Assembly (NCBI GenBank): GCA_041485125.1
Contig: JBGPIT010000002.1
Location: 1-49,537, forward strand
Direction: 5' to 3'
Length of the DNA stretch: 49,537 nt
DNA from: Candidatus Binatia bacterium
Lineage (GTDB): Bacteria; Desulfobacterota; Binatia; UTPRO1
Each line of letters opens with the position of its first letter. The first letter of the stretch is position 1. Of the stretch, positions 2,154 to 32,375 are shown piece after piece. A model generated the notes under the pieces. The model was not told where the DNA came from and did not search any database. It saw only the letters and a program-made list of their open reading frames with translations. The position numbers and the translations under genes were made by a program.

Positions 2154-2174
2154 TCGCGCGCGGCGGGCGTGATC

Positions 2175-4713: not shown

Positions 4714-4780
4714 CCCTCGCTTGTGCTCTCCGGAGAGGCACGTATAAGGAAGGGGCGGTCCCCCACCGTCGGCACCTCTG

Positions 4781-7646: not shown

Positions 7647-8887
<1,241 letters not shown>

Positions 8888-8891
<4 letters not shown>

Positions 8892-9379: not shown

Positions 9380-9389
9380 GCGGCGCGCG

Positions 9390-10520: not shown

Positions 10521-10535
10521 GGGGGAGGGGCTATA

Positions 10536-11759: not shown

Positions 11760-11771
11760 CCGGGGCTGGTC

Positions 11772-12242: not shown

Positions 12243-12244
12243 CC

Positions 12245-12673: not shown

Positions 12674-12675
12674 GG

Positions 12676-15186: not shown

Positions 15187-15781
15187 GCGACGTCGCATCG
15201 CGCCGGCGGCGGGCTTCATCGCGCTGGTGCTCCTCGCCGGCGGTTGCGGCTACCATTTCACCGACGGCGGCCGCACCTTCACTCCCGAGCTGCGGACGCT
15301 CGGCGTCGCGACCTTCGTCAACGAGACCCGCGAGATCGGCATCGAAAAGCGCCTCGCGCTCGCGATCGAGCGCGAGTTCTCGATGCGCGGTCCGCTCAAG
15401 GTCGTGAACGATCCCAGCGCCGGCGATCTCGTCCTCAGCGGCAAGGTGAAGGAGGTGCAAGACCGGCCGACGGCGTTCAATCGCGAGGACGAGGTGCTGA
15501 TCTACCAGACCACGCTCGCGCTCGATCTCGAGCTCCGCCGGCGCGACAACCACGAGCTGGTCTGGGAGGCGCACAACCTGCGCGCCGCCAGCGACTACGA
15601 GAGCGTCGCCTCCGTGATCGTCACCACCTCGTCGGAGTTCCGCCGTTCGACGCTCAATCCCGAGGACCTCGGGGCGTTCACCGACATCCAACTCGCCGAG
15701 AGCCGGCGCCGGCAGGCGGTCGAGCGCATCGTCGCGAGCCTCGCACGCGACGTTTACCAGCAAGTCATGGAGGACTTCTGA
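15179..15781 (+). CDS. lptE: LPS-assembly lipoprotein LptE (probable)
   Basis: 200 aa with a TTG start overlapping the leuS stop. It has a signal peptide with a lipobox-like LLAGGC (Cys22). It lies between leuS and holA, the conserved leuS-lptE-holA arrangement. Confidence 0.6.
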
Positions 15782-20510: not shown

Positions 20511-20629
20511 GGCTGGCGCATAGCGTGCGGTCGCCGCGCGGGTCAATCGCACCGCCCCGATGCACGCGCACAGGCGCGACCCCGCCGCTCCCGGTGGCAA
20601 TCGCGGACGGCCGTCCGTATGCTGCGCGC

Positions 20630-21286
20630 GTGTCGCACACGCTCTCCGAGCACGAGTCGAAAGAGCTGCTGCGCGCGGCGGGCATCGCGGTACCGCCGGA
20701 GCATCTCGTCGCCGACGCGGAGGCGGCGGTGCGAGCGGCGACGGCGCTCGGGTTGCCGGTCGGCGTGAAGCTCTGCGGCCGCGGCATCGCCCACAAGACC
20801 GAGCGCAACCTGGTGCGTGTCGCGCTCGGCGACGCCGAGTCCGTACGGCGCGCCGCCGCCGACCTGCTCTCGGCGCGGCGTCCGGAAGACGGCGACGCGG
20901 ACCTGCTCGTGGTCCCGATGATCCCCGGAAAGCGCGAGGTCATCGCCGGCCTGATCCGCGACCCGGTCTTCGGGCCGTGCGTGATGCTCGGCCTCGGCGG
21001 CATCTTCGCCGAGGTCGTCGGCGACGTCGCGTTCGCGGTCGCGCCGCTCATCGGTGACGATGCCGAGGACTTGATCGACGCCCTTCGCTACCGCGGCCTG
21101 CTTGGCACCTTTAGAGGCGAGCCCGCGATCGACCGCGCCAAGCTCGCGCACGTCCTCGAGACGCTCGGTCGGCTCGGCGTCGAGCGGCCCGACATCCGCT
21201 CGATCGACGTCAACCCGCTCATCGTCTCCGGCGACGCGCCGGTCGTCGTCGACGCGCTCGTCGAGCTCGAGGATCCGCCACGATGA
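20630..21286 (+). CDS. ADP-forming acyl/acetyl-CoA synthetase, ATP-grasp (beta) subunit
   Basis: The GTG at 20630 gives VSHTLSEHESKELLRAAGIAVPPEHLVADAEAAVRAATALGLPVGVKL...DVNPLIV. This is an ATP-grasp_5-type domain of about 218 aa. Its stop overlaps the next gene. Confidence 0.75.
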   Translation: MSHTLSEHESKELLRAAGIAVPPEHLVADAEAAVRAATALGLPVGVKLCGRGIAHKTERNLVRVALGDAESVRRAAADLLSARRPEDGDADLLVVPMIPGKREVIAGLIRDPVFGPCVMLGLGGIFAEVVGDVAFAVAPLIGDDAEDLIDALRYRGLLGTFRGEPAIDRAKLAHVLETLGRLGVERPDIRSIDVNPLIVSGDAPVVVDALVELEDPPR

Positions 21287-22752
21287 GCACGCTCGTCGAA
21301 CGGTTCCGGCCGCTCTTCTACCCGCGCGGGATCATCATCACGGGCGTCTCGGCGCATCCCGGGAAATTCGGCAGCGTCACGTACCACAACCTGATCGCGT
21401 GCGGGTACGAGGGCGAGCTCTTCCCGATCAACCGCGAGGGCGCGGTCTCCTTCGGCCGTCCGACCTACAAGAGCGTCGCCGACGTGCCACGCGGGCGCGC
21501 CGATCTCGCCTTCATCTGCACGCCGAACACGGTGAACGAGACGTTGCTGCGCGAGTGCGCCGCGGCCGGCGTACGCGCGGCCTTTGTCGCCTCGGGCGGG
21601 TACGGCGAGTCGGCCGACGGCAAGGAGATGGAACGCCGGCTGGTGGCGCTCGGGCGCGAGCTCGGGCTCCTCATCGCCGGCCCGAACGGCCAAGGCTTGA
21701 TCTCGACCGCGGTGCGCATGTGCGCGCAGATCGTCGCGCCGTATCCGCCGCCGGGTCCGATCTCGGTCGTGTCGCAGAGCGGGAATCTCGCCTCGAGCTT
21801 CATGAACTACGGCTGTCTCACCGGCATCGGCATGTCGAAGGCGATCTCGTGCGGCAACTCCGCGCAGCTCGAGCTCGCCGACTACCTCGAGTACTTCGGC
21901 GAGGATCCCGAGACCACGGTCAGCCTCGCCTACCTCGAGGGCGTCGAGGACGGCCGCCGTTTCCTCGAGGTCGCGCGCGCGCACACGGCGCGGAAGCCGC
22001 TCGTGCTGGTGCGCGGCGGCGTGACCGGTGCCGGCAAACGCGCGGCGAGCTCGCATACCGGCGCGCTCGCGTCCGACGACCGCATCTTCGCGGGCGTCTG
22101 CCGCCAGGCGGGCATCACGCGCGTCGAGACCGTCGAGGAGGCGTACGAGACCGCCGCGGCCTTCGCGACCCAGCCGTTGCCGCGCGGACCGCGCACGTTG
22201 ATCTTCACCGTCGCCGGCGGGTGGGGCGTGCTCACCTCGGACGCGTGCGTCGAGGCCGGCCTCGATCTGATCCCGCTGCCCGACGATCTTCGCAGCGCGA
22301 TCGACGCGATGGTGCCGTCACGCTGGAGCCGTTCGAATCCGGTCGACCTCGCCGGCGGCGAGACGCGCGACACCATCCCGGAGGTCCTGGAGCTCATGGC
22401 CGCGCATCCCGACGTCGACGCGATCGTGTATCTCGGGATCGGGATTCAGGCGGCACAGGCGCAGATGTTCCGCCGCGGTCCGTTCTGGCCGGGCCACGGT
22501 CTCGAGCGCATCGGGACGTTCCACGAGAGCCAGGATCGCCGCTACGCGCTGGCGGCCGCGGACGCGAGCCGCCGCCACGGCAAGCCGATCCTGGTCGCGT
22601 CGGAGCTCGTCTACACCGATCGCGCCTACGGCAACGCCGGGCCGCTCGGCGTCGCGGAGTCGGGCCGCGTCACGGCGCCGTCCGGCCAACGCGCGATCCG
22701 CACCCTCGCACGGATGGTACGTTACGCGCGCCGCCGCGCGCGACGCGCCTGA
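21283..22752 (+). CDS. ADP-forming acyl/acetyl-CoA synthetase, CoA-binding/ligase (alpha) subunit
   Basis: 489 aa: LFYPRGIIITGVSAHPGKFGSVTYHNLIACGYEGELFPINRE..., GPNGQGLIS, and a phosphohistidine-loop-like ASSHTGALASDD. Confidence 0.8.
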   Translation: MSTLVERFRPLFYPRGIIITGVSAHPGKFGSVTYHNLIACGYEGELFPINREGAVSFGRPTYKSVADVPRGRADLAFICTPNTVNETLLRECAAAGVRAAFVASGGYGESADGKEMERRLVALGRELGLLIAGPNGQGLISTAVRMCAQIVAPYPPPGPISVVSQSGNLASSFMNYGCLTGIGMSKAISCGNSAQLELADYLEYFGEDPETTVSLAYLEGVEDGRRFLEVARAHTARKPLVLVRGGVTGAGKRAASSHTGALASDDRIFAGVCRQAGITRVETVEEAYETAAAFATQPLPRGPRTLIFTVAGGWGVLTSDACVEAGLDLIPLPDDLRSAIDAMVPSRWSRSNPVDLAGGETRDTIPEVLELMAAHPDVDAIVYLGIGIQAAQAQMFRRGPFWPGHGLERIGTFHESQDRRYALAAADASRRHGKPILVASELVYTDRAYGNAGPLGVAESGRVTAPSGQRAIRTLARMVRYARRRARRA

Positions 22753-22839: not shown

Positions 22840-23250
22840 TCAGCCGGTGGCGACGCCCAGCTTCGGCTCTTTGCCGGCGAGGAGCCGGCGCCGGGCGGCG
22901 CACACCGGCGAGCGCGGATCGTCGCGCCGGCGCCACGCCAGCAAGGCACGGCGCAACGGCCCCGGCGCGATGCCGAGCTCCTCGCAGACGTTCAGGAACG
23001 AGCACGGCCAGTCGTGCGCGTCGGAAAAGAGCCAGCGCGCGGCGTCCTCGAACGCTCTCCGTCGCGCCCGTTGATCGCTCGCGGCGCTCGACTGAAAGGT
23101 GACGATCGCGTCGCTCAAGATCGCCAGCAGCAGCCGGCGCTCCGGCTCCGTATCCACATGGGCGTTCGAAAGCCCCCGATACTGCTCGGGAAGGAGCGGG
23201 TACTGCTCCGTCTCCGGCTGCCCGCGCGACGTCTCACTCATGCCTTTCAT
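22840..23250 (-). CDS. Hypothetical protein (about 136 aa)
   Basis: Tail of track ORF 22840..24357, from ATG 23250 (or 23241): MKGMSETSRGQPETEQYPLLPEQYRGLSNAHVDTEPERRLLLAILSDAIVTFQ...FEDAARWLFSDAHDWPCSFLNVCEELGIAPGPLRRALLAWRR. Balanced composition, unlike the Arg-rich upstream part of the ORF. No family recognised. Confidence 0.45.
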   Translation of the reverse strand: MKGMSETSRGQPETEQYPLLPEQYRGLSNAHVDTEPERRLLLAILSDAIVTFQSSAASDQRARRRAFEDAARWLFSDAHDWPCSFLNVCEELGIAPGPLRRALLAWRRRDDPRSPVCAARRRLLAGKEPKLGVATG

Positions 23251-23396
23251 ACGGATGGCAACACGCGACGGATGCCGCCGTTGCACCGCGGTCGAGTATG
23301 GCGTGCGGTTCCGTGCCGCGCGGATTTCTCGACCGGCGTCGCAGACGGTGACGCGCCAGATCGTATCGCGGCGGACAGGTGCCGCGGCGCGGAGCG

Positions 23397-24563
23397 TCAG
23401 CGCGCTCCCGCTCGCCCGAGCGCGAGCAGCGCCCCGCTGAACACCCAATTGCCGATCGCTGCGCCCCAGAGAAACCACTCGAGCAGGCCGGCCGCGGTGA
23501 GCAGGACGAGCACGTAGGCGAACTCGCGGCTGGCGAACGCCTCGAAGACCCGTCGTTGCGCCGACGTCGGGCGGTGACGGACGAACGACCACCACACGGT
23601 CGCCATCGAGACCACGAGTCCCGCGAGCAGCACCGCACCGAGCACGACGAAGCGCCGGTCCGGCGTGTGCCGGTAGAGACCGACCGCGATGCCCGCGAAG
23701 AGAACGAGGTGCACGACGTTGTCGCCGATGACGTCGAGCCGCGCCCCAAAGCGCGATTCGCGAAAGGTGAGACGCGCGACCTCGCCGTCGCAGCCGTCGA
23801 CGATCGTCGAGAGGAGGAAGAGCAGCGCACCGAGGAGCGCCGCCAACCCGCTCCCGACCGCGAAGAGCGCGCCCGCGGCGACACCGATCGCGATCGAGGT
23901 CAGCGTGATCGCGTTCGGCGCGATCCCGGTCGGCAGCAGCAACCGTGTGATCGCGCGCGAGAGACGGCGATCGACGTGGCGGGTGAACCAGCTGTCGCCG
24001 GCGCGTCCGATCCGCTCGAAGAGACCGCGCGACGCCTCGGTCCGTCCCGCCGGCGTCGAGGCGTCGACGAGCAGCGCAGCGCGCGGCGGAGTCCAGCGCC
24101 CGGTGCCGTTCGTCGCCGCCGCAGCGGAGGCGCGACGCGCCGTCGCGCCGGCGACGGCATCGATCCCCCGATCGGCGTCGCTGGCGGTGCCGCGCCAGAG
24201 CAGGCCGCCGGGCGCGAGCCGCGGCGCGCCGTCCGCGCTCGCGACAAACGCCGTCAGCGTACGCGGATCGGTGACGGTCGTCGCGGCCGCGACCACGACG
24301 GCCGACGCTTCGCCCAGCCAAGCGTCGACCGCAGCGCGATCCTCGCTCGCTGCCCACGCGATCGGCAGCGTCGGCATGCGCGGCGGCCGCAGCGGCGCGG
24401 TGCCGAGACAGAGCAGACGGCGCGCGCCGGCGCGTGCGGCGGTGAAGGCGGCGCGGGTGAGGAGCGTCGTACCCGCAACCGGCACGTGCGCCTCCGGCGC
24501 GATCAGCAGAACGGCGTCGAAGGGGAGCGGCTCGGACGGCGCTTCCGGCGACGCCTCAGTCAC
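23397..24563 (-). CDS. Two-domain CDP-alcohol phosphotransferase family protein (soluble N-terminal domain plus membrane transferase), paralog 1
   Basis: 388 aa with a GTG start overlapping the upstream stop by 8 nt. Its C-terminal polytopic domain has the intact family motif DGCDGEVARLTFRESRFGARLDVIGD (D-G-x2-A-R-x8-G-x3-D-x3-D). The N-terminal ~190 aa are soluble and begin like a nucleotidyltransferase strand (FDAVLLIAPE) but lack GxGxR. Confidence 0.8.
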   Translation of the reverse strand: MTEASPEAPSEPLPFDAVLLIAPEAHVPVAGTTLLTRAAFTAARAGARRLLCLGTAPLRPPRMPTLPIAWAASEDRAAVDAWLGEASAVVVAAATTVTDPRTLTAFVASADGAPRLAPGGLLWRGTASDADRGIDAVAGATARRASAAAATNGTGRWTPPRAALLVDASTPAGRTEASRGLFERIGRAGDSWFTRHVDRRLSRAITRLLLPTGIAPNAITLTSIAIGVAAGALFAVGSGLAALLGALLFLLSTIVDGCDGEVARLTFRESRFGARLDVIGDNVVHLVLFAGIAVGLYRHTPDRRFVVLGAVLLAGLVVSMATVWWSFVRHRPTSAQRRVFEAFASREFAYVLVLLTAAGLLEWFLWGAAIGNWVFSGALLALGRAGAR

Positions 24564-25632
24564 CGGCCGCTGGCGGCCCGCCGCCCGCAGGCGGCAGCGG
24601 CTCGCGAAAGGGCAGGCGGACCCCGCCCGCGGCGCTCGAACGGTAGCTCAGCTCGAGCAAGCGGCAGCAGGTCTCCGCTTCCCGGAAATTCGCGCCGCGG
24701 ACCCGCGGCTCGTAGAGCTCCTCGCGCAGGTCGTCGAACATCGTCGCGAACCAATCGGGGTGGTACGACCCGGCCGAGAGCGCTTGCGCGAAGCCGGTCT
24801 CGACGGGCTCGCGCTCTTGCACCGACACCGTGAGGGTCCGGTCGGCGATCTCCATCCGGCCGTGGTCGGCGGTGACGCTCACGCGGTTCGAGCGCGCAGC
24901 CGCGGCCCACGTCAGCGTGATGTCGGCGCGTGCATGCGGGAACTCGATCGTGCACTGGGCCGTGTCCTCGACCGCCGCCGCGGTGAACTTGCGCTGCTCG
25001 GTGCGCGCCGACACCGCGACCGGCTCGGCGTCGAGCATGGAGAGCGCGAGGTAGAAGGCATGCCAGCCGTGGTCGACGAGGATGCCGCCGCCCGCGATCG
25101 CGGGATCGAGCCGCCAAGTCGCGCCGTCGGCCGAGCCGGGCGGCGTCGTCCGCAGCGTCTCGATCTCGAGGCGCGACACCGTACCGATGTCCCCGCGCCG
25201 CAGCACCCGCCGCGCGGTGCGAATGATGGGCGCGCACTTCCAATTGTGCGCGGTGAAGACGACGACGTGGGCCGCGCTCGCCGCCGCCCGGATGCGGTTG
25301 CAGTCGTCCATGTGGAGCGCGAGCGGCTTCTCGCACAGCACGTTCACCCGCTTCGCGATCAGCTGGAGGACGATCTCGGGATGCGTCACCGGCGGCGTGG
25401 CGACGTCGACGAGATCGAGGCGCTCCTGCTGCAGCATTTCGTCGAGCGAGGCGTACGCGTGCGCGTTCGGCACCAGCTCGGCCGCCTTGGCGAGGCGGGC
25501 CGGATCGGCGTCGCAAACGGCGATCAGCTGCATGTGCCGGTCGGCCGTCCACGCCGGCAGGTGTCCTTCGACCGCGACGTTGCCGAAGCCGACGATCGCG
25601 CCCCGGAGCGGCCGATTGCGCCGCAGGGTCAC
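24556..25632 (-). CDS. Gfo/Idh/MocA family NAD(P)-dependent oxidoreductase
   Basis: 358 aa. It has an N-terminal Rossmann segment (GAIVGFGNVAVEGHLPAW), the family EKP motif (VLCEKPLAL), and a C-terminal alpha/beta domain. Confidence 0.82.
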   Translation of the reverse strand: MTLRRNRPLRGAIVGFGNVAVEGHLPAWTADRHMQLIAVCDADPARLAKAAELVPNAHAYASLDEMLQQERLDLVDVATPPVTHPEIVLQLIAKRVNVLCEKPLALHMDDCNRIRAAASAAHVVVFTAHNWKCAPIIRTARRVLRRGDIGTVSRLEIETLRTTPPGSADGATWRLDPAIAGGGILVDHGWHAFYLALSMLDAEPVAVSARTEQRKFTAAAVEDTAQCTIEFPHARADITLTWAAAARSNRVSVTADHGRMEIADRTLTVSVQEREPVETGFAQALSAGSYHPDWFATMFDDLREELYEPRVRGANFREAETCCRLLELSYRSSAAGGVRLPFREPLPPAGGGPPAAGD

Positions 25633-26951
25633 TGCCGTTCCGCGTCGCGCGCGACGGTCGCGAACGCCTCCTCGAGGATATCGAGCCCGCGGTCGGCTTC
25701 CTCGTCACTGATGGTGAGCGGCGGATTGATGCGGACCCGGGGGAAGTACCCCATCATCAGAAGGCCGCGGCGCAGCGCTTCGAGGAAAATGCGCTCGGTG
25801 AGGTCGCGCGCGAGCGGCTCCTTGGTCGCGCGGCTCGCGACCAGATCGAGGCCGATCAGCAGGCCGACACCGCGCACGTCGCCGATGAATTCGAAGCGCT
25901 CCTGCATCGCGCGCAGGCGCTCGAGCATGCGCGCGCCCACCCGAGCGGCGTGCTCGACCAGGCCCTCGTCGCGGATCGTCTCGACGGTCGCGAGCGCCGC
26001 CGTCACCGCGAGCGGATTGCCGCCGTAGCTCGAGGACGACGCGCTCGGCCGCGCGAATGGCGTCGAGGCGACGATCGTGTCGGTGGAGATCAGACCGCTG
26101 ATCGGGAAGCCCGAGCCCATCCCCTTGCCGACGGTCATGACGTCGGGGACGACGCCGGTGTGCTCGCAGCCGAACCAGCGGCCGGTGCGGCCGAAGCCGG
26201 TGATCATCTCGTCGGCGATCAGCACCGCGCCGATCTCATGAGCGAGGTCACGGATCGCGGGCAGGAACTCCGGCGGCGGCACGACGTTTCCCGCCGTTCC
26301 TTGCATCGGCTCGATAATGATCGCGGCGACCGCGCCGGTCGTGGTGCGCTTGATGCTCTCGCGCGCGAACTCGACGCACGCCATGCCGCAGTCGGGGTAG
26401 CTGAGCTTGAACGGGCAGCGGTAGCAGTCGGCATACGGCACCGAGTAGCGGCCGCCGGGCAGGGGGCCCCAGCCGTGCTTCGACTCGTCGCCGATGAGGC
26501 CCATCACGCCCGCGGTCTTGCCGTGGAAGCCGCCCCAGAAACCGACGATCTCGTGCTTGCCGGTGTACGACATGGCGAGGCGGAACGCGGCCTCGACGGC
26601 CTCGGCGCCGCCGCTGTAGAGCTGCGTCCGACCGAGGTCGCCGGGCGTAAGACGCGCGATCAGCTGCAGGAGGCGGACGCGGTTCTCGGTGGTGAAGCTA
26701 CCGACCACGATGCGGCGGAGCTGCGCCTCCATCGCCGCGACGTAGCGCGGATGCGAATGCCCGAGGCTCGCCACCGCGACGCCGGCGAAGAAGTCGAGGT
26801 AGCTGTTACCGTCGAGATCGGTGACGGTCGCACCGCGGCCGGACGCGAGCGCCAGCTCCGAGAGCAGCGCGATGCGCTGCTGCCCCGGCGCGATCAGCGC
26901 TTGCTCCTCGCGAAAGAGCGCGCGCGAGCGCGTGCCGGGTCGATCGCTCAT
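25629..26951 (-). CDS. Class-III (ornithine/GABA-type) PLP-dependent aminotransferase
   Basis: 440 aa: YLDFFAGVAVASLGHSHP, IIEPMQGTAGNVVPPPEFL, LIADEMITGFGRTGRWF, and the PLP-lysine segment PDVMTVGKGMGSGFP. Confidence 0.85.
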   Translation of the reverse strand: MSDRPGTRSRALFREEQALIAPGQQRIALLSELALASGRGATVTDLDGNSYLDFFAGVAVASLGHSHPRYVAAMEAQLRRIVVGSFTTENRVRLLQLIARLTPGDLGRTQLYSGGAEAVEAAFRLAMSYTGKHEIVGFWGGFHGKTAGVMGLIGDESKHGWGPLPGGRYSVPYADCYRCPFKLSYPDCGMACVEFARESIKRTTTGAVAAIIIEPMQGTAGNVVPPPEFLPAIRDLAHEIGAVLIADEMITGFGRTGRWFGCEHTGVVPDVMTVGKGMGSGFPISGLISTDTIVASTPFARPSASSSSYGGNPLAVTAALATVETIRDEGLVEHAARVGARMLERLRAMQERFEFIGDVRGVGLLIGLDLVASRATKEPLARDLTERIFLEALRRGLLMMGYFPRVRINPPLTISDEEADRGLDILEEAFATVARDAERQ

Positions 26952-27781
26952 GCGCGGCCCCCTGCCCGTAGCGCGCTCGGCGTGGAAGCGGCGACGCGCT
27001 CGGCGACGTAGGACGCGATCGCGTCCGCGGCCTCGTCGCGGCAGCGCGCGAAGCTCGGCCAGTCGTTGATGTCGATCAGAGCCGCCGAGCCGTCCGGCCG
27101 GACGACGAGGTCGCCGCCGAAGACCTCGAGGCCGAGCGCCGCAGCGCCCGCCCGCGCGACCTCCCAGAGCGACGGCAGCGGCGCCGGCACGTCGGCGACG
27201 TCACCGTAGGCGCGAAAGAAGCTGCCGTCGGCAACCGCGTAGAACTTGAGGACCGTGCCCTCGACGTGCTCCTGCACCGCCGCGGCGGCGATACCGCGCG
27301 CGGCGAGCGACGCGAGCGCTTCGGCGAGGGCGTCGTCGGTCGCGGTGAAAACCACGTCGCCGGCGCTCATCGCGTGCACGTCACCACGCTTCACCCAGCA
27401 CGGGCCCCGCGCCGTGTGCGCGCGGGGCGCCGCCGTCGCGACGAGCGTCGTCTCCGGAGCGGGGACGGCCGCATCGCGCAGCAGCCGCACCGTCTCGGTG
27501 CGGTAGCAGTGCCGGATCGCCGCCGGCGTGTTGACCACCGGGACGCGCGCCGCGAAGGCGTCGAGCGCACGCAAGGCCGCGGCGCTCTGACACATCGCGA
27601 GGACGCCGCGCACCCGCGTCGGATCGGCGGCCGCAGCGATCAGCTGTTCCGCATCGCAGAGCGCGACGTCCAAACCGCGCGCGTGGAGCGCGGCGGCGGC
27701 GCGGGTGAGGATCGCGGCATCGTCCTCGACACGCCCGGGCGAGTATTGCGCTTCGCGAAAGACACCGAGGAGCTCCGCCAT
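26948..27781 (-). CDS. ATP-grasp fold protein (kinase or ligase; function unknown)
   Basis: 277 aa: PVVNTPAAIRHCYRTETVRLL, CWVKRGDVHAMSAGDVVF, AAAVQEHVEGTVLKFYAV, and the metal-site loop FGGDLVVRPDGSAALIDINDWPSF. Confidence 0.7.
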   Translation of the reverse strand: MAELLGVFREAQYSPGRVEDDAAILTRAAAALHARGLDVALCDAEQLIAAAADPTRVRGVLAMCQSAAALRALDAFAARVPVVNTPAAIRHCYRTETVRLLRDAAVPAPETTLVATAAPRAHTARGPCWVKRGDVHAMSAGDVVFTATDDALAEALASLAARGIAAAAVQEHVEGTVLKFYAVADGSFFRAYGDVADVPAPLPSLWEVARAGAAALGLEVFGGDLVVRPDGSAALIDINDWPSFARCRDEAADAIASYVAERVAASTPSALRAGGRA

Positions 27782-27785
27782 CTAG

Positions 27786-28487
27786 TCAGGAAGGCCTTTC
27801 TAGGCGGAGAAACCGCTCCGCGGCCGTGACGTCCTCGGGGCGATCGACGTCGACCGCGAAGCCGACGTCAAAGCCGTAGAGCAGATGGCCGTGGTCGAGG
27901 AGCGACCGAAGGAAGATCCGGAACGCAGTCCATTGCCGTACCGGCGACGCATCCGCGAGCGAATACACTACGGGTTTCAGGAAGTAAACGCCGGCCGTGA
28001 CGTGACTGCCGCTGGCGGCGCCGAGGCTGCGGATGCGTGCGTGCTCGTCGAGCTCGACCCAGAGCGGCTTCTCGTCGTCGACCGTCGACGTCACCCCGAG
28101 GACACCGGCGGCGTCGGCGTGCTCGGCGGCGAACGCGACCAGCGCCGCCACCGACGCCGGCGCGATCACCGCGTCGACGGTGAGGAGAAGGAAGGGTGCC
28201 GACTCGAGATACGGGCGCAACGCAAGGAAGCTCTCCGCCGAGCTCGCGGTAGTGCGTTGGACGACGTCGATCGGCACACCGAAGCTCTCGGTCTCGAGGA
28301 AGCGCCGCACGCGATCCGTCTCGGCGTTCACGATGCAGCTGATGCGCGTAGCACCGGCGCCCTTGGCGGCCTCGATCTGATGCGCGATGAGCGGGCGGCC
28401 GCCGATCTCGAGGAGCGGCTTCGGGGTGTCGATGCCCGCCGCCCGCAAGCGCTCTCCGTGTCCCGCGGCGATGATGCCGGCGATCAC
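27786..28487 (-). CDS. Nucleotidyltransferase (sugar/alcohol-phosphate NTP transferase family)
   Basis: The GTG at 28487 makes a GTGA overlap with the upstream stop. VIAGIIAAGHGERLRAAGIDTPKPLLEIGGRPLIAHQIE carries the canonical G-x-G-x-R and PKPLL signature. 233 aa. Confidence 0.8.
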   Translation of the reverse strand: MIAGIIAAGHGERLRAAGIDTPKPLLEIGGRPLIAHQIEAAKGAGATRISCIVNAETDRVRRFLETESFGVPIDVVQRTTASSAESFLALRPYLESAPFLLLTVDAVIAPASVAALVAFAAEHADAAGVLGVTSTVDDEKPLWVELDEHARIRSLGAASGSHVTAGVYFLKPVVYSLADASPVRQWTAFRIFLRSLLDHGHLLYGFDVGFAVDVDRPEDVTAAERFLRLERPS

Positions 28488-29194
28488 CGCAGCAACGCCT
28501 CGAGCTCGAGCAGGCTCGCGAGCCGCCACACCGGCGCCGGCGACACCGGCATGAGCGCGGGCGGCGCGGCAAGCCACGCGGTGCGCATGCCGGCTGCCGC
28601 GGCCGGCACCACGTCGCGCTCCCACGAGTCGCCGACGTGGAGAATCGCGCCGGGCGCGACACCGAGGCGTTCCGCGGCGAGGGCGTATATCGCCGGATCC
28701 GGCTTGGCGATGCCGGCGACGGCGGAGTCGATCACGACGTCGAACGGCCCGAGCCGTGCCTCCGCCAGGAGCATCGGCATGTTGCCGTAGGAGTTCGAGA
28801 CCACACCGAGCCGAAACCGCTCGGCGAGGCGGCGCAACAGCGGGCGGTTGCGGTCCCACGCCCGCCGCGTGTCGCGGATGAAGCCGTCGGCGAGGCGCTC
28901 GGCCAAGCGCGCATCGGCGCGCGCGAGACGCTCGAGCTGGTAGCGGACGTGGCTGCGGACGGTCCGCTCGAGACCGAAATCGCGAATCCCGTCCTCGGCC
29001 GCGAGACGCGCGTCGGCGTCGTAAAATGCCGGGCGCAGCGCGGCGCTCGAGAGCGCCACGCCGCACTCGGCGTAGAGCGCGAGGAAATGATCGAACCAAT
29101 GCGCCGCGTCGCCGTCGAGCGTGCCGCCGTAGTCCAGCAGCACCGCGCGCAAGGCCGCAGCGTCAGCGATCGGAACCGCGCCCGACTCCGGCAC
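28484..29194 (-). CDS. HAD superfamily hydrolase (subfamily IA-like)
   Basis: 236 aa with a GTG start. Motif I is VLLDYGGTLD, motif II is LGVVSNS, and motif III/IV is K...HVGDSWERDV. The second Asp of the DxD motif is replaced by Gly. Confidence 0.75.
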   Translation of the reverse strand: MPESGAVPIADAAALRAVLLDYGGTLDGDAAHWFDHFLALYAECGVALSSAALRPAFYDADARLAAEDGIRDFGLERTVRSHVRYQLERLARADARLAERLADGFIRDTRRAWDRNRPLLRRLAERFRLGVVSNSYGNMPMLLAEARLGPFDVVIDSAVAGIAKPDPAIYALAAERLGVAPGAILHVGDSWERDVVPAAAAGMRTAWLAAPPALMPVSPAPVWRLASLLELEALLR

Positions 29195-29257
29195 GTTCGA
29201 GAGCTACCGGAGGATGGACGCGCCCGCAATCGACCGCCCGCACGCCGGCCGGCCGTC

Positions 29258-29287
29258 TTGCTGGCGGCGCGCCGCCGACGCTATAGG
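29258..29287 (+). promoter_or_regulatory. Candidate promoter for CDP-alcohol phosphotransferase paralog 2 (would give a near-leaderless mRNA)
   Basis: TTGCTG (29258-29263), an 18 nt spacer, then TATAGG (29282-29287). The ATG at 29297 lies only 9 nt after the -10 element, and no Shine-Dalgarno sequence precedes it. Confidence 0.3.
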
Positions 29288-29296
29288 TGCCCGCCC

Positions 29297-30550
29297 ATGC
29301 AGGCCGTCGTCTTCGTTCCGGATCGACGCTGCACGGAGCGTGACGGCGCGCCGGGCGGCCTCGCGCCGCTCGAGCGGCAGCTGAAGCAGCTGCGATCGCT
29401 CGGCTGCGATCGTCCGTTCCTGTTGCTGCCCGACGGCGTCGAGGTCGCAGATGCCGCGCTACCGGTCGGGGTCCTGCCGAGCGTGGCGCGCGTCCCAGCG
29501 GAGACACCTGACGTCTTCGCGGCGCTCCACGCTGCGGCGGCGCGTTTGCCCGGCGAGCTCGTGTTCTCGTCCGCCGATCGTCTCGTCGATCTCCGTGTCT
29601 GGCGCGCGCTCGCCGGCGCAGCGGGCACGGTCGTCGCGACCTCGAGCGGCGGCAGCGTGGAGCCGGTCGGCCGCACGACGGCGGCGGACGTACGGAGCGC
29701 GGGCACGACGCTCGGCGCGCGGGCACGCCGCCTCGACGTCGCCGCGCTCGATCCGTACCTTCCGGAGCTCCGCGGGACGCTGCCCGCGTACGTCGCGCCG
29801 GTGCGGTCGGATGCCGAGCGCGCCGCGGGTTGGCGCCTCCTCCTCGACGCCGTGCAGAAGCGGACGCTCGATCTCCCGGGCCGGTACTTCGACACGCCCT
29901 TCGAGAATGCGCTCGTCCGCCGCCTGGCGCCGACGGCGGTGACGCCGAACCAGATCACCGTCGCGACGACGGTGATCGCCGGGCTCACCGGCGTGCTCTT
30001 TCTGCGCGGCTATCTGCGGCTCGGCATCGTGCTCGCGCTGCTCGTCGGTGTCCTCGACGGCGTGGACGGCAAGCTCGCGCGCATCAAGCTCGCGACCTCG
30101 CGCGTGGGCGCACTCGAGCACGTCACCGACTTCTTCTACGAGAACTTCTGGTACCTGAGCCTGGCGTCCTCTCTCGCGCGCGAGGGCGGCATGATGCTGT
30201 GGCACGCGGGAGTCGTCCTCGTCGCCGCCGACTTCCTCGACAACCTCGCCTACCTGGGGGTGCGCGTGCGGACCGGGCGGATGCTCGACGAGCTCACCGC
30301 GTTCGACCGCCGCTTCCGCGCCGTCGCCGGGCGGCGGAACGTGTACGTGATGATCTTCGCCGCCGGTTTTTTCAGCGGACACGCCGCCACGACGTTCCTG
30401 GTCGCGACCGCCTGGGCGGTGGTGACCGTGGCCGTCCACGCCGCGCGGCTGGTGACGGTCCGGCCGTCCGCCGACGAGCCGCGGGCGGACGGCGCCCTTC
30501 AGCTCCCCGAGATCGAGTCCGCGAGCGGCGTGCTGCTCCACGAGAAGTAG
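29297..30550 (+). CDS. Two-domain CDP-alcohol phosphotransferase family protein, paralog 2 (divergent catalytic motif)
   Basis: In-frame ATG at 29297 within track ORF 28637..30550; the upstream part of that ORF is antisense to the HAD gene. 417 aa. The N-terminal soluble ~200 aa (MQAVVFVPDRR...) have no GxGxR. The C-terminal membrane domain has LDGVDGKLARIKLATSRVGALEHVTDF. Confidence 0.75.
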   Translation: MQAVVFVPDRRCTERDGAPGGLAPLERQLKQLRSLGCDRPFLLLPDGVEVADAALPVGVLPSVARVPAETPDVFAALHAAAARLPGELVFSSADRLVDLRVWRALAGAAGTVVATSSGGSVEPVGRTTAADVRSAGTTLGARARRLDVAALDPYLPELRGTLPAYVAPVRSDAERAAGWRLLLDAVQKRTLDLPGRYFDTPFENALVRRLAPTAVTPNQITVATTVIAGLTGVLFLRGYLRLGIVLALLVGVLDGVDGKLARIKLATSRVGALEHVTDFFYENFWYLSLASSLAREGGMMLWHAGVVLVAADFLDNLAYLGVRVRTGRMLDELTAFDRRFRAVAGRRNVYVMIFAAGFFSGHAATTFLVATAWAVVTVAVHAARLVTVRPSADEPRADGALQLPEIESASGVLLHEK

Positions 30551-31506
30551 GCGAACGCCGCGAGACCGGTCGCGCTCACCGCGAGCTGATTCAGGCGGAC
30601 GACGATTGCGACCGCGAGGCCGGTCGCCGCGCCCAAGCCGAACGCGCTGAAGATCAGCACGCGGCCGCCCTCTTGCACCCCGACCCGCCCGGGCACGACG
30701 AACATCGCCGAGTCGATGACGAGCGACGCCGCCTCGATCGCGAGGCAGGTGGCGAAGCTCGCGCCCACGCCGAGGGCGCCGAGAATGAACCAGAGCTGGA
30801 CCAGGCCGACGAGCTGGCCGACGGTATGCCACGCCACTGACGCGACGAGCGCGCCCGGACGCTCGCGCCAGAGGTGCTCGAGACGATGATCGAGCGCGGC
30901 GCCCCGGTCGCGGAGCGCGAGCGCGAGCCGCGCGCGCGGCGCCACGCGTGCGAACGCGGCGCCGATGCCGCCGACCCAGCCGCGGCGTTGCACGACGACC
31001 ACGGCGGCGAGCGCCGCCACCAGGACGGCGAAACCCGCGACGATGGCGAGCGCGAGCTGGGGCGCATCGTGAAGGCGCCGCACCGCGAGGCCGATCCCGA
31101 GGAGGACGACCGTCGCCTGCGCGATCACCAGGCTCAGCTTGGAGACGACGAGCGAGGCAACCACGTCCGCCGCGCCAGCGGTCCCGCGCAATAGCATACC
31201 CTTCACCACCTCGCCGCCGAGGCTCGCCGTCGGCGTCAGGAGATTGATCGCGGTGCCCGCCTGCCGGATCCAGTAGAGACGCCAGAAGCCGATCGGCGTG
31301 CCGGGCGCGAGCGTACACTGCCAGCCGCGCGTGTTGCAGCCGTCGGTCACGAGCTCGAACAGCACGACGACGAGAAAGCCGGCGCCGAGACGCTCGAGCG
31401 CCGTGGTGATCGCGGCGACACCGATCGCGCGCACCAACACCGCGAAGAGGACGCCCCCGGCGACGGCGAGACCGAGCTGGAGCGACCGCAACGTCCGCGC
31501 ACTCAT
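30499..31506 (-). CDS. UPF0104 / lysyl-PG synthase TM-region (MprF flippase-like) family membrane protein
   Basis: 335 aa and polytopic. It has family-like segments INLLTPTASLGGEVVKGMLL and FVVPGRVGVQEGG. Its 3' end overlaps the convergent paralog 2 by 52 nt. Confidence 0.65.
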   Translation of the reverse strand: MSARTLRSLQLGLAVAGGVLFAVLVRAIGVAAITTALERLGAGFLVVVLFELVTDGCNTRGWQCTLAPGTPIGFWRLYWIRQAGTAINLLTPTASLGGEVVKGMLLRGTAGAADVVASLVVSKLSLVIAQATVVLLGIGLAVRRLHDAPQLALAIVAGFAVLVAALAAVVVVQRRGWVGGIGAAFARVAPRARLALALRDRGAALDHRLEHLWRERPGALVASVAWHTVGQLVGLVQLWFILGALGVGASFATCLAIEAASLVIDSAMFVVPGRVGVQEGGRVLIFSAFGLGAATGLAVAIVVRLNQLAVSATGLAAFAYFSWSSTPLADSISGS

Positions 31507-31533
31507 CGTGATCCGCGGGCGCCGCGCCCGGCC

Positions 31534-32217
31534 TCAGCGCACGTCGTTCGGGTCACCGGGGGGATTGGCGAGCGCCGCGTCGGCGTCGACGCGCTGCCCG
31601 TCCACGATCACGTCCCGGCCGGCGACGCGCACGCGCCCATGCGCGATCAGCTGGATCGCGCGCGGATAGAGCCGGTGCTCCTGCCGCTGAATGCGCGCGT
31701 GGAGCGTCGTCTCGGTATCGCCTGCGACCACCGGGACCGCCGCTTGCGCGAGGATCGGACCGTGGTCGGCCTGCTCGTCGACGAAGTGGACGGTGACGCC
31801 CGTGATGCGGACGCCGTGCGCGAGCGCGTCGCGCTCCGCGTGGATCCCCGGGAAGGCCGGCAGCAGGGCGGGGTGGATGTTCAGGACGCGCTCCGGAAAA
31901 GCGTCGAGAAGGACGCGGCTCACCAGGCGCATGAAGCCCGCGAGGACGACGAGCCCGACGTCGTGCGCGCGCAGGACCTCGACCAGGCGCGCGTCGTAGG
32001 CCTCACGCGACGGGGACTCGGCGGGCGTGACGACGTGCGCCGGTATCGCGTGGGTCTGGGCGCGGGTGAGGCCGTAGGCGTCCGCGCGATTGCTGATCAC
32101 GACCGCAATGCGCGCGTCGAGGCGACCGACGGCGATGGCGTCGATCAACGCCTGCAGATTGCTACCGCTGCCCGAGAGCAGGACACCGAGCGCGAGCGGG
32201 CTGCGCGTCGCGCTCAT
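31534..32217 (-). CDS. purN: Phosphoribosylglycinamide formyltransferase
   Basis: From ATG 32217: MSATRSPLALGVLLSGSGSNLQALIDA...VLAGFMRLV...VLNIHPALLPAFPG...GVTVHFVDEQADHGPI. Confidence 0.9.
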   Translation of the reverse strand: MSATRSPLALGVLLSGSGSNLQALIDAIAVGRLDARIAVVISNRADAYGLTRAQTHAIPAHVVTPAESPSREAYDARLVEVLRAHDVGLVVLAGFMRLVSRVLLDAFPERVLNIHPALLPAFPGIHAERDALAHGVRITGVTVHFVDEQADHGPILAQAAVPVVAGDTETTLHARIQRQEHRLYPRAIQLIAHGRVRVAGRDVIVDGQRVDADAALANPPGDPNDVR

Positions 32218-32375
32218 ACGCTCCGGCGCCGATCCGCGTCGCGCATGAGGCGGATACACCGGAAAGGACCGTCGCTGTCAATTCGCGACGCGCCGGCAGA
32301 AAGACGCTGCGCGCCCTCGCGTGGAGGCTTTTGTCTATCGGCGAAGGACACCCGTGCACCGTCGCGACCACGCGG

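Follow-up and report, generated by a model that had tools for sequence, protein, structure and literature searches.

The gene block at positions 23397–31506 of the contig JBGPIT010000002.1 (Candidatus Binatia bacterium, GCA_041485125.1) is best explained, with about even confidence, as the Binatia member of a widespread cluster that installs a nucleotide-activated cyclitol head group on a membrane lipid. The route is most likely of the Kennedy type and would lead through CDP-(amino)inositol to an inositol phospholipid or sphingolipid that carries an amine. The whole stretch of DNA that was analyzed, positions 1–49,537 of the contig (49,537 nucleotides), is called the window below.

Organization of the locus

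The block is composed of the following features:

23397–24563, minus strand: CPT1, CDP-alcohol phosphotransferase (PF01066, 46.8 bits)
24556–25632, minus strand: GFO, Gfo/Idh/MocA dehydrogenase (PF01408, 89 bits; PF22725, 85 bits)
25629–26951, minus strand: AT3, class-III aminotransferase (PF00202, 330 bits)
26948–27781, minus strand: AGR, orphan ATP-grasp protein (AlphaFold2 and Foldseek fold)
27786–28487, minus strand: NTP, nucleotidyltransferase (PF12804 and PF00483)
28484–29194, minus strand: HAD, HAD-IA hydrolase (PF00702, 71.6 bits)
29195–29296, no strand: intergenic region of 102 nt from which the HAD gene and CPT2 diverge
29297–30550, plus strand: CPT2, paralogous CDP-alcohol phosphotransferase (PF01066, 21.3 bits)
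30499–31506, minus strand: LPG, LPG_synthase_TM/HpnL-like membrane protein (PF03706, 99 bits)

All eight family assignments made in the original prediction hold; they correspond to Pfam matches, except for AGR, which was assigned by its modeled fold, and CPT2, which fell marginally short of the PF01066 cut-off of 22. The coordinates, gene order, overlaps and 102-nt divergent spacer were also confirmed, with the correction that NTP starts with a GTG codon at 28487, which overlaps the HAD stop codon as GTGA. CPT1 and GFO overlap by 8 nt, GFO and AT3 as well as AT3 and AGR by 4 nt each, and a gap of 4 nt separates AGR from NTP. The CPT2 and LPG genes are convergent and share 52 nt at their 3' ends, and purN is located 27 nt upstream of the LPG gene. 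No sigma-70-like site was found in the HAD/CPT2 spacer, a search that is uninformative for the Binatia lineage.

The flanks contain housekeeping genes, as predicted, namely COX, hisG, lpxD, fabD/G, glyA, nrdR, rib genes, leuS, lptE and murJ, as well as mazG, purN, a comF-like gene, yqeY, greA, nusA, infB, truB, pnp and purB/C. No CdsA-type cytidylyltransferase domain was found among the large ORFs scanned in the window, in agreement with the prediction. The G+C content of the block (0.70–0.75) matches that of the flanks, and the same block occupies the same site beside purN in other Binatia-like genomes, with a protein identity of 51–85%. The label of an accessory locus is therefore unsupported; the locus is lineage-conserved and is not an accessory island.

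Recurrence of the cluster and its link to inositol

When genomes were scanned with the ATP-grasp profile, at least 598 matches were obtained, from which 80 loci were kept; with two Binatia contigs (L001 and L002) they make up the 82 related loci considered here. The set HAD-NTP-AGR-AT3-GFO together with CPT and LPG recurs across at least 10 phyla. Among the kept loci, this extended block was found in Desulfobacterota, Myxococcota, Acidobacteriota, Verrucomicrobiota, Ignavibacteria, Gemmatimonadota, Methylomirabilota and Elusimicrobiota. The co-occurrence check suggested in the original prediction revealed strong co-conservation, and since both the gene set and its order recur among the 80 fetched loci in many phyla, the arrangement is far beyond chance. 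AGR, whose family comprises 950 clusters (50% identity, E ≤ 1e-10), is a marker of the whole cluster family.

A reduced form without GFO and AT3 was found in Bacteroidota, with the composition NTP-AGR-CPT-LPG-HAD-MIPS, where MIPS is myo-inositol-1-phosphate synthase. Both AT3 and GFO were present in 51 of the 82 loci and neither in 27; only one of the two was found in four loci, three of which are short contig fragments, and in the fourth (L003) a 1.4-kb stretch without a match lies at the expected place of the aminotransferase. Because the AGR tree follows taxonomy and not cluster type, the strictly paired AT3 and GFO behave as an optional plug-in on a common pathway. This tree, along with the equal presence of AGR in clusters without the pair, makes it unlikely that the ATP-grasp protein amidates the new amine, as had been proposed.

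MIPS, of two different types, adjoins 37 of the 82 loci. Nineteen of these, from at least three phyla, also carry AT3 and GFO; in them AT3 is 50–64% identical, and GFO and AGR are about 40% identical. No MIPS was found in the window, as predicted, and six Binatia-like loci showed none up to 10 kb away from the cluster, which counts against the best explanation; none lies within 10 kb in 32 extended loci. The substrate had been considered open; given the adjacency in 37 loci, 19 of them with the dehydrogenase/aminotransferase pair, its identity is less open and points to inositol.

The original prediction did not recognize this gene combination, but its core has already been published as a putative "alternative inositol lipid cluster" (Heaver et al. 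2022, PMC9246714), described for Bacteroides (Phocaeicola) vulgatus and Prevotella. In that cluster, genes for a nucleotidyltransferase, a CDP-alcohol phosphatidyltransferase, a HAD hydrolase and an LPG-synthase-like protein are located together beside MIPS, and a Kennedy-type synthesis of PI-dihydroceramide via CDP-inositol was proposed for it; its carriers make PI-dihydroceramide yet have no PIP-synthase route (PMC9246714). No later confirmation of the pathway was found in the literature, which counts against the best explanation. In gene arrangement, the reduced Bacteroidota form matches this cluster, and its AGR, NTP, HAD and LPG are homologous to those of the window (21–37% identity). In the Bacteroidota loci analyzed here, an ATP-grasp gene, absent from the discussion in PMC9246714, lies between NTP and the transferase. 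The window differs from the Bacteroidota cluster in the additional GFO and AT3, in having two transferases of types A and B with an N-terminal nucleotidyltransferase-like domain as opposed to type C, and in the lack of an adjacent MIPS.

Several neighboring genes are related to lipids. MlaEFD is located inside the cluster in Ignavibacteria, SPT-like and GNAT acyltransferase genes are neighbors in Verrucomicrobiota and Gemmatimonadota, and HpnM/MlaC-like, TolC-like and AsmA-like genes are found in Desulfoferrobacter. In 49 of the 82 loci, the ATP-grasp gene has an LPG homolog no more than 8 kb away. In addition, AGR forms fusion proteins, namely NTP-AGR in six clusters, one HAD-NTP-AGR (P0317) and AGR-CPT. 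From these fusions and from the Mla, ceramide-type or hpnJKI neighbors, the gene products can be assigned to a single membrane-lipid pathway, and the Mla, ceramide-type and lipid-transport genes of other phyla favor a lipid product over a soluble solute.

Properties of the encoded proteins

The original prediction of two-domain AF2299/DIPPS-like transferases was borne out for CPT1 by an AlphaFold2 model (pLDDT 91.3) with a Foldseek search and for CPT2 by hhalign against CPT1. The N-terminal domain of CPT1 has a nucleotidyltransferase-like fold, similar to RmlA-type folds, without the GxGxR loop; the C-terminal domain is a six-helix CDP-OH_P_transf domain with the canonical motif DGx2ARx8Gx3Dx3D. 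AF2299 (1e-20) and IPCT-DIPPS (1.7e-14) were the top PDB sequence matches, and 4mnd and 4o6m were matched by the model over the full length, so that CPT1 is, as modeled, a two-domain protein like AF2299 and IPCT-DIPPS throughout. AF2299 (4o6m) gave the best target-normalized TM-score (0.73–0.75) and shares the cytosolic domain and six-helix architecture, but its identity to CPT1 is 18–20%; to our knowledge, its function is not established. It should be mentioned that one of the nearest solved relatives of CPT1 is a DIPPS, whose product is a soluble solute, and this counts against the best explanation.

CPT2 is 29% identical to CPT1, and the hhalign probability was 99.7% over 319 columns including the N-terminal domain, which indicates a paralog with the same predicted two-domain architecture. 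Its variant motif, DGx2DGx2ARx8Gx2Ex3Dx3E, is kept unchanged in 11 orthologs, which come from Binatia, Desulfobacterales, Myxococcota, Verrucomicrobiota and one "Betaproteobacteria" MAG. No cytidylyltransferase loop was found in the N-terminal domains of either transferase, so that activation falls to a separately encoded enzyme. NTP has the loop AAGHGERLR, weakly matches the IPCT half of the IPCT/DIPPS equivalog and has PDB matches that include 4jd0 (9e-12, full length); it is predicted to be a CTP:(amino)inositol-phosphate cytidylyltransferase.

AGR did not match Pfam at threshold, and its weak matches were divided among ATPgrasp_ST, TTL and Ins134_P3_kin. The ATP-grasp fold was confirmed by Foldseek using an AlphaFold2 model (pLDDT 91.7), with Ddl, LysX, RimK and ITPK1 equally good (TM about 0.65–0.71). 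That the ligases match no worse than ITPK1 counts against the best explanation. The best PDB profile match was the inositol 1,3,4-trisphosphate 5/6-kinase ITPK4 (E 4.7e-4), and inositol-phosphate kinases were the only sequence-level PDB matches below 0.001. AGR probably acts as a kinase and not as a ligase that acylates amines, and its step would probably precede that of the nucleotidyltransferase. The kinase assignment has to be weighed against a reading in which AGR is a ligase that aminoacylates or otherwise acylates the cyclitol head group, whereupon the modified lipid is flipped by the MprF-TM-like protein, an MprF-like charge modification on inositol lipids. The ambiguous fold, the membership of the partner membrane protein in the MprF flippase family and the AGR-CPT fusion, which puts the ATP-grasp domain at a membrane enzyme, fit such a ligase. 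However, judging from the six independent NTP-AGR fusions and the one HAD-NTP-AGR fusion, the joined enzymes seem to catalyze successive soluble steps in the manner of kinase/nucleotidyltransferase pairs, the sequence matches point to kinases, and species with the reduced cluster are reported to make plain PI-dihydroceramide (PMC9246714). We consider a ligase unlikely, though it fares best among the alternatives.

HAD has an atypical motif I, DYGGT, in which the nucleophilic Asp is kept and Asp+2 is replaced by Gly; D[FYLM]GGT was found in 74 of 75 cluster-associated HAD homologs. The missing Asp+2 is the general acid normally needed by phosphomonoesterases, which counts against a phosphatase role in the best explanation.

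GFO contains the motifs EKP and DHGWH and its best PDB match was 6nor (2.6e-21), which we take to be an aminoglycoside-pathway dehydrogenase acting before an aminotransferase. Equivalogs such as IolG and Gfo6 were matched weakly, and the scores for xylose dehydrogenase and IolG were alike, both far below the cut-offs. AT3 is a fold-type I PLP enzyme that is more conserved than any other protein of the cluster (50–85% identity across phyla); it is under the cut-off of all NCBIfam equivalogs, and in the PDB its neighbors are archaeal class-III racemases as well as GABA aminotransferases. GFO and AT3 are predicted to perform the hydroxyl-to-keto and keto-to-amine steps, respectively. Comparable modules, in which a dehydrogenase and an aminotransferase (with a HAD phosphatase in some cases) convert a hydroxyl to an amine, are NtdC/NtdA/NtdB for kanosamine and inositol dehydrogenase with inosose aminotransferase for scyllo-inosamine. 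Like these modules, the cluster combines a Gfo/Idh/MocA oxidoreductase with a PLP aminotransferase, and the two are strictly paired in it, but the aminotransferases of the known modules are of the DegT/DnrJ/EryC1 type, whereas AT3 is a GABA-aminotransferase-like class-III enzyme. Class III is not the family of the known inosamine pathways, an observation that counts against the best explanation.

The membrane protein is polytopic and presumably flippase-like in function. PF03706 covers it entirely, and the TIGR03476 HpnL model was matched end to end at 164 bits, under the cut-off of 195.65; the TIGR00374 flippase-like domain scored above the cut-off (47 bits). It does not contain the C-terminal aminoacyl-PG synthase domain of MprF.

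Proposed pathway and alternative readings

The comparative data agree with the scheme originally predicted, in which an aminated alcohol phosphate is activated with CDP and then moved by CDP-alcohol phosphotransferases. We infer the following product, order of steps and role of HAD. GFO would oxidize one ring hydroxyl of myo-inositol, or of its phosphate supplied by a presumed MIPS encoded elsewhere in the genome, and AT3 would transaminate the ketone to an inosamine. The cyclitol would then be phosphorylated by AGR, and NTP would convert the phosphate ester to a CDP-cyclitol. CPT1 and CPT2 would transfer the phospho-cyclitol to a lipid alcohol, for which diacylglycerol and ceramide are both candidates, and each paralog may have an acceptor or a donor of its own. 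The product would cross the membrane via the HpnL/MprF-TM-like protein, and HAD may remove one phosphate, from the MIPS product, a phosphorylated lipid intermediate or pyrophosphate. The PIP-synthase route (mycobacterial PgsA1; B. thetaiotaomicron BT_1523/BT_1525) shares the transferase superfamily, the MIPS inositol phosphate and a final dephosphorylation. It differs in that the donor is CDP-diacylglycerol and a soluble nucleotidyltransferase is not needed, and the match of the window proteins to the PIPS equivalogs was weak (54 bits; cut-off, 170).

The Binatia head group could also derive from another amino-polyol phosphate (e.g., aminopentanetetrol- or serinol-like), made from a sugar or polyol by GFO and an omega-type AT3, then CDP-activated and transferred. 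Class-III aminotransferases typically use aldehydes and omega-amines, and this reading also agrees with the GFO scores and with the absence of MIPS from the window and the six Binatia-like loci. Aminopentanetetrol phospholipids exist, and no biosynthetic genes for them were found in the literature. Nevertheless, the 19 orthologous clusters directly beside MIPS argue for inositol, and the 32 extended loci without it indicate that the linkage is dispensable, so that we regard a non-inositol head group as quite unlikely.

A soluble compatible solute, an analogue of di-myo-inositol-phosphate (DIP) with amino-inositol, appears slightly less probable still. Here, the transferases would join CDP-cyclitol and cyclitol phosphate and HAD would dephosphorylate the product. 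The combination of nucleotidyltransferase, CDP-alcohol transferase and phosphatase is exactly that of DIP synthesis, as in IPCT/DIPPS (Archaeoglobus fulgidus AF0263, PDB 4mnd; Thermotoga IPCT). Moreover, IPCT-DIPPS and AF2299 are the best relatives of CPT1, whose two-domain fold superposes on 4mnd over 442 columns, and DIPPS itself is a membrane protein despite its soluble substrates. However, the window scored 72.8 bits against an equivalog cut-off of 580 bits and contains additional ATP-grasp, dehydrogenase, aminotransferase and flippase-like genes, the cytidylyltransferase loop is missing from the CPT N-terminal domains, and the product is probably a lipid. DIP is known from hyperthermophiles, whereas the cluster carriers, like the context of the window, are mostly mesophilic. 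The flippase-like membrane protein, present in nearly every cluster, and the Mla, SPT/acyltransferase and other lipid-transport genes described above also speak against a solute, as does the reduced form, which is found in mesophilic Bacteroidota of the gut whose inositol sphingolipids have no other candidate synthase (PMC9246714).

Least probable of all is a hopanoid polyol or other envelope glycoconjugate as acceptor, with the locus belonging functionally to the hpnI/J/K/L side-chain genes: HpnL is the nearest family of the membrane protein, the extended cluster directly adjoins an HpnJ equivalog in seven loci (739 bits, which exceeds the cut-off), HpnK in three, HpnI-like in two and HpnB in one, and L057 has the single-strand order CPT1-HAD-NTP-AGR-AT3-GFO-HpnJ-HpnK-HpnI, but no hpn or shc gene was found in the window, about 75 of the 82 loci have no hpn neighbor, Bacteroidota, which are not known as hopanoid makers, often carry the reduced cluster, and we know of no phosphodiester-linked hopanoid.

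Returning to the cyclitol lipid route, the predicted product of the Binatia locus is an amino-inositol (inosamine) phospholipid or phosphosphingolipid, and clusters without the dehydrogenase/aminotransferase pair would yield a plain inositol lipid. The extended, presumably amine-forming version is a variant of the cluster whose core was already published as putative.

Organization of the locus and its enzymes

All eight open reading frames of the cluster were present as predicted, and searches with Pfam and NCBIfam models upheld the family assigned to each of them, with the exception that the ATP-grasp protein had no Pfam match at threshold.

Genes of the cluster in the window (position, strand, handle, family)
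23397–24563 (−): CPT1, CDP-alcohol phosphotransferase; CDP-OH_P_transf (Pfam/NCBIfam)
24556–25632 (−): GFO, Gfo/Idh/MocA dehydrogenase, both domains (Pfam/NCBIfam)
25629–26951 (−): AT3, class-III aminotransferase; Aminotran_3, 330 bits
26948–27781 (−): AGR, ATP-grasp protein, 277 aa; nothing at threshold in Pfam
27786–28487 (−): NTP, nucleotidyltransferase (NTP transferase), GTG start at 28487
28484–29194 (−): HAD, HAD-IA hydrolase
29297–30550 (+): CPT2, CDP-alcohol phosphotransferase; CDP-OH_P_transf, 21.3 bits against a cut-off of 22
30499–31506 (−): LPG, HpnL-like membrane protein; LPG_synthase_TM

The tight junctions were confirmed as three overlaps of 8, 4 and 4 nt and then a gap of 4 nt, and the GTG start of NTP overlaps the HAD stop codon as GTGA. 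The divergent spacer before CPT2 is 102 nt long, and CPT2 and LPG are convergent and share 52 nt. A promoter and terminator scan of the locus gave no signal beyond the shuffled expectation.

The remainder of the window consists of housekeeping genes, as originally described. The block was also predicted to be an accessory locus, but this island reading was rejected because its G+C content (0.70–0.75) is the same as that of the flanks and because synteny holds: the eight-gene arrangement beside purN is identical in two long contigs (L001 and L002; 7.0 Mb and 110 kb), with protein identities to the window from 51% (CPT1) to 85% (AT3). The source names of CPT1 and AGR homologs included ‘Candidatus Binatia bacterium’, ‘Deltaproteobacteria bacterium’ and ‘Polyangiaceae bacterium UTPRO1’, which points to a probable Binatia-type origin of the window. 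CPT1 is immediately followed on its own strand by a gene for a small protein of about 135–138 aa (22840–23256 (−)) without a Pfam or NCBIfam match. It occupies the same position, at 50–56% identity, in all five of the closest Binatia-like loci (L001–L005) and could be an additional operon gene that is specific to this lineage.

The LPG gene lies 3′ of purN on the same strand with a 27-nt gap (both genes together, 30499–32259 (−)), and the corresponding pair overlaps by 4 nt in L001 (2419–4091). In this lineage, the HpnL-like gene is probably co-transcribed with the purine-biosynthesis gene and not with the remaining cluster. On the opposite strand, about 650 nt past the CPT1 stop codon and beyond the 138-aa ORF, the window encodes an ATP-grasp_5 protein and a CoA-binding/Succ_CoA_lig protein of the ADP-forming acyl-CoA synthetase type (20525–22752 (+)). 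This pair is also found in L002 and is absent from L001.

The two transferases had been predicted to be two-domain proteins similar to DIPPS and AF2299. Modeling of CPT1 using AlphaFold2 (pLDDT 91.3) and a Foldseek search showed that the protein superposes on IPCT-DIPPS (4mnd) and AF2299 (4o6m) across both domains, while its N-domain by itself matches RmlA-type nucleotidyltransferases. For CPT2, the same architecture follows from its alignment with CPT1, which starts in the N-domain (hhalign, 99.7%). CPT1 shares the canonical motif DGx2ARx8Gx3Dx3D with IPCT/DIPPS. CPT2 has Gx2Ex3D instead, and its variant motif DGx2DGx2ARx8Gx2Ex3Dx3E is invariant in 11 orthologs from five lineages. Unlike IPCT/DIPPS, which carries the GxGxR cytidylyltransferase loop in its N-terminal nucleotidyltransferase-fold domain, the CPT1 N-domain lacks this loop and reads LLIAPEAHVPVAG; the loop is confined to the separate NTP gene. 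Only R37, R44 and G46 are invariant in this domain across 28 homologs. Because the loop is missing and almost no residues are invariant, the CPT1 N-domain is probably not catalytic. Scores against the IPCT/DIPPS equivalog NF041135 (cut-off 580 bits) were 72.8 for CPT1, 41.5 for CPT2 and 34.6 for NTP.

The HAD hydrolase (28484–29194 (−)) has DYGGT as its motif I. HAD phosphomonoesterases possess DxDx(T/V) at this site, whereas D[FYLM]GGT was found in 74 of 75 cluster homologs, so that the nucleophile is kept and the Asp+2 general acid/base is replaced by Gly, which is unusual for a phosphatase. Motifs II–IV (SN, K-P, GDSxxxD) are recognizable in the window sequence. The replacement makes the step of this enzyme uncertain: it could be a substrate-assisted phosphatase, a pyrophosphatase pulling the cytidylyltransferase reaction, or have another role. 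The aminotransferase differs from the DegT/DnrJ/EryC1 sugar and inosose aminotransferases, since Aminotran_3 is its sole Pfam match and the DegT_DnrJ_EryC1 domain is not present.

The ATP-grasp protein and its fusions

An AlphaFold2 model of AGR, built from an alignment of 24 homologs (pLDDT 91.7), was compared with known structures using Foldseek and has an ATP-grasp fold. D-Ala-D-Ala ligases, LysX/ArgX, RimK and maize ITPK1 were matched with TM scores of 0.65–0.71; ZmITPK1 (7tn7) reached 0.69/0.71, and Ddl, LysX and RimK were equally good, so the fold does not separate a kinase from a ligase because both kinds match in this range. In a PDB search with the single sequence, all five matches were inositol-phosphate kinases, albeit weak ones (best E-value 0.078). 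With the profile, the best match was Arabidopsis ITPK4 (E-value 4.7e-4), confined to the C-terminal 65 residues forming the Mg/ATP-binding segment, followed by LysX and RimK (E-values 0.013–0.016) over a different segment. AGR shares the ATP-grasp fold with the ITPK1/Ins134_P3_kin kinases but does not reach the gathering score of PF05770 (13 bits against 23). A relaxed Pfam search of the 24 homologs gave weak matches to Ins134_P3_kin in nine, ATPgrasp_ST in 12 and TTL in nine. Since the Foldseek, PDB and Pfam results are split, AGR is classified here, from its sequence and model, as an orphan ATP-grasp family. The original suggestion that this protein might amidate the new amine was rated unlikely, and AGR is probably not an amine-acylating enzyme.

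The AGR family comprised 950 clusters at 50% identity (E-value ≤ 1e-10). Among the representatives, fusions were found of NTP with AGR (six), of HAD, NTP and AGR (one) and of AGR with a CDP-alcohol phosphotransferase (one), in proteins P0247, P0282, P0287, P0293, P0339, P0356, P0314 and P0317. These natural fusions are strong evidence that the HAD, NTP, AGR and transferase proteins act in one pathway, with AGR next to NTP.

Distribution of the cluster and association with inositol synthesis

GTDB species representatives were scanned with the AGR profile, and at least 598 relatives were confirmed (598 among the 600 stretches listed). Gene content was scored with the eight window proteins as tblastn queries on 82 loci, namely 80 fetched ones and the two Binatia contigs. 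The co-occurrence that the original prediction proposed to look for in other genomes was observed, as the order HAD-NTP-AGR-AT3-GFO recurs across many phyla, usually accompanied by a CDP-alcohol transferase and an LPG-type gene. This long cluster was found in Binatia, Syntrophobacteria/Desulfobacterales, Myxococcota, Acidobacteriota, Verrucomicrobiota, Ignavibacteria, Gemmatimonadota, Methylomirabilota, Elusimicrobiota and others. The transferases fall into at least three subtypes: type A of the window (DGCDGEVAR...GARLDVIGD; CPT1), type B (DGVDGKLAR...GALEHVTD; CPT2) and type C of Bacteroidota (DSADGQLAR...GRILDG). In the Bacteroidota/Ignavibacteria type, the last Asp is often missing.

Both AT3 and GFO were detected in 51 of the 82 loci, neither in 27 and one alone in four. 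Three of these four are contig fragments of 2.7–3.5 kb, and the fourth is the Binatia-like L003. In L003, tblastn found nothing over about 1.4 kb (10778–12151) at the expected aminotransferase site, and both NTP and CPT1 were matched in two pieces; the gap and the splits may be due to assembly errors, frameshifts or masked sequence. The 27 loci that have neither AT3 nor GFO belong chiefly to Bacteroidota (Sphingobacterium, Bacteroides, Muribaculaceae, Alloprevotella) and a few Ignavibacteria, and their gene order is NTP-AGR-CPT-LPG-HAD. In a neighbor-joining tree, AGR tracks taxonomy rather than cluster type. In addition, short and long sets are adjacent in two Acidobacteriota loci.

Adjacent sets in Acidobacteriota (short set CPT-AGR-HAD-LPG; long set NTP-AGR-AT3-GFO-CPT-MIPS)
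L045: short set 1333–5046; long set 9237–15686
L082: short set 655–3151; long set 8225–15578

Because of the tree and these mixed loci, the GFO/AT3 pair is read as a plug-in, repeatedly gained or lost, on a common pathway. Both mixed loci contain two copies of the ATP-grasp and transferase genes and one copy of the HAD and nucleotidyltransferase genes.

The cluster is linked to myo-inositol-1-phosphate synthase (MIPS). In the Bacteroidota loci, the gene after the cluster encodes a 442-aa MIPS (PF07994, 344–362 bits), and close tblastn homologs of it adjoin AT3- and GFO-containing clusters in Ignavibacteria, Acidobacteriota and Gemmatimonadota. A second, short type (367 aa) adjoins the cluster in four deltaproteobacterial-type loci; its homologs at 64–77% identity are named ‘inositol-3-phosphate synthase’ in NCBI. 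Within the fetched flanks, MIPS was present in 37 of 82 loci (19 of 51 long and 18 of 27 short clusters). In line with the original statement that the window has no such gene, tblastn with both types found none in the window, nor in the Binatia-like loci L001–L006. Among the 120 matches listed for the deltaproteobacterial short type, all were from lineages other than Binatia.

Lipid-related neighborhoods and the proposed pathway

In the window, LPG contains PF03706 at residues 11–310 of 335 and no second domain; MprF combines the flippase domain with a C-terminal aminoacyl-phosphatidylglycerol synthase domain, whereas LPG has the flippase domain alone. The match to the HpnL model TIGR03476 is end to end but under the cut-off (164 against 195.65 bits), and there are no hpn genes in the window. 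A functional tie of the cluster to hopanoid hpn genes was retained as an alternative of low probability. Such genes adjoin the long cluster in seven loci of Desulfobacterota, Myxococcota and HR30 (L007, L009, L034, L035, L036, L040 and L057). All seven have an HpnJ equivalog (739 bits, cut-off 577.6), two have HpnI-like genes and one has HpnB, and HpnM-like genes were also seen. HpnK exceeded its cut-off in L040 and L057 and was matched by tblastn at 34% identity in L035. The order in L057 is CPT1-HAD-NTP-AGR-AT3-GFO-HpnJ-HpnK-HpnI. No hopanoid-associated genes were found next to reduced clusters.

Lipid-related genes in the neighborhoods of related clusters
L007:7091–8551; L057:9295–12716; L040:12617–17493: hopanoid-associated genes
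L015:1865–4405: mlaE/mlaF/mlaD insertion (equivalents in L020, L028, L051, L052, L053, L060, L067, L076)
L012:6506–7648; L021:13075–14697; L046:13090–14388; L074:17184–18422 (and relatives): SPT-like synthase and GNAT

About ten Ignavibacteria loci carry the phospholipid ABC transport genes mlaE, mlaF and mlaD as an insertion that separates the NTP gene from the ATP-grasp gene. A few kb from the cluster, Verrucomicrobiota and Gemmatimonadota loci encode an SPT-like alpha-oxoamine synthase (best model SPT-CFB, 540 bits, cut-off 640) and a GNAT acyltransferase. A bacterial ceramide synthase of the GNAT type is known. The gene content suggests that the acceptor in these loci may be ceramide. The enzyme that makes ceramide in bacteria is an acyltransferase (PMC11087976). 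For the Verrucomicrobiota clusters, N-acetylation of the new amine by the GNAT protein was rated below a putative ceramide-synthase-like role, because its gene accompanies the SPT-like one. TolC-like, HpnM/MlaC-like and AsmA-like genes follow the cluster in Desulfoferrobacter suflitae. The Mla, SPT/GNAT and TolC/HpnM/AsmA-like neighborhoods favor a membrane-lipid product.

The core of the cluster is of a known but unproven kind. Bacteroides and Prevotella that have MIPS but lack PIP-synthase genes carry an ‘alternate cluster’ with an NTP transferase (BVU_RS13095), a CDP-alcohol phosphatidyltransferase (BVU_RS13105) and a HAD hydrolase (BVU_RS13115), near a lysyl-PG-synthase-like gene; species with it were shown to make phosphoinositol dihydroceramide, and a Kennedy-like CDP-inositol route was proposed only (Heaver et al. 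2022, PMC9246714). The locus tags leave one gene between the NTP transferase and the transferase and one between the latter and HAD; in the Bacteroidota loci analyzed here, these slots hold the ATP-grasp and LPG-type genes. All four genes of the B. vulgatus-type cluster are present and contiguous in the window, and homologous sets occur in the Bacteroidota loci. The B. vulgatus-type cluster adjoins MIPS, as do the 37 related loci but not the window, and the Bacteroidota transferases are of type C, whereas the window has types A and B with an extra N-domain. A literature search found no later validation of the CDP-inositol route, no description of the long form or of an amino-inositol lipid, nothing on inosamine with CDP-alcohol or on clusters of MIPS, aminotransferase and CDP-alcohol transferase, and no biosynthetic information on aminopentanetetrol; in a paper on Black Sea sphingolipids, inositol head groups are not mentioned. 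In the literature searched, there appears to be no earlier description of the AT3/GFO-extended form, its phylum breadth, the orphan ATP-grasp protein, the atypical HAD or the link to hpnJKI.

The original interpretation, an aminated, CDP-activated alcohol phosphate for a lipid or a solute, was supported in part: the product is now read as inositol-derived and probably a lipid, acylation of the amine by the ATP-grasp protein is considered unlikely and the accessory status was dropped. In the pathway we envisage, inositol (phosphate) would be oxidized by GFO and transaminated by AT3 to an inosamine. Pairs and fusions of kinases and nucleotidyltransferases are a common activation logic, and for this reason the ATP-grasp protein is assigned the supply of the phosphate ester. 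NTP would then make a CDP-cyclitol, CPT1 and CPT2 would pass the phospho-cyclitol to lipid alcohols, and the HpnL-like protein would translocate the product.

We tentatively propose, as a reading that is plausible but short of probable, that the extended cluster makes an undescribed lipid class, phospho-inosamine (amino-inositol) glycerolipids and/or sphingolipids, via a bacterial CDP-cyclitol pathway of the Kennedy type, in which ATP-grasp cyclitol kinases of a new family would carry out the first committed step. Such a pathway would occur widely in uncultured lineages of soils and sediments (Binatia, Acidobacteriota, Verrucomicrobiota, Ignavibacteria, Desulfobacterota, Gemmatimonadota), with the product in some of them further tied to hopanoid-type hpnJKI chemistry. 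The recurring hpnJ/K/I link gives a handle on the unexplained HpnL family.

If the proposal is true, many environmental phyla carry an amine-bearing inositol head group, zwitterionic as opposed to anionic, and the reading of inositol-type lipids in environmental lipidomes would change, with the orphan ATP-grasp and aminotransferase genes serving as a marker for such lipids. It would also fill in the genes and enzymes missing from the ‘alternative’ inositol-lipid route that most Prevotella and many Bacteroides in the human gut apparently use, including the ATP-grasp protein and the atypical HAD, both of which had no role in the original proposal of that route. Finally, it would constitute a second enzymatic way, besides MprF, to put amines on anionic head groups.
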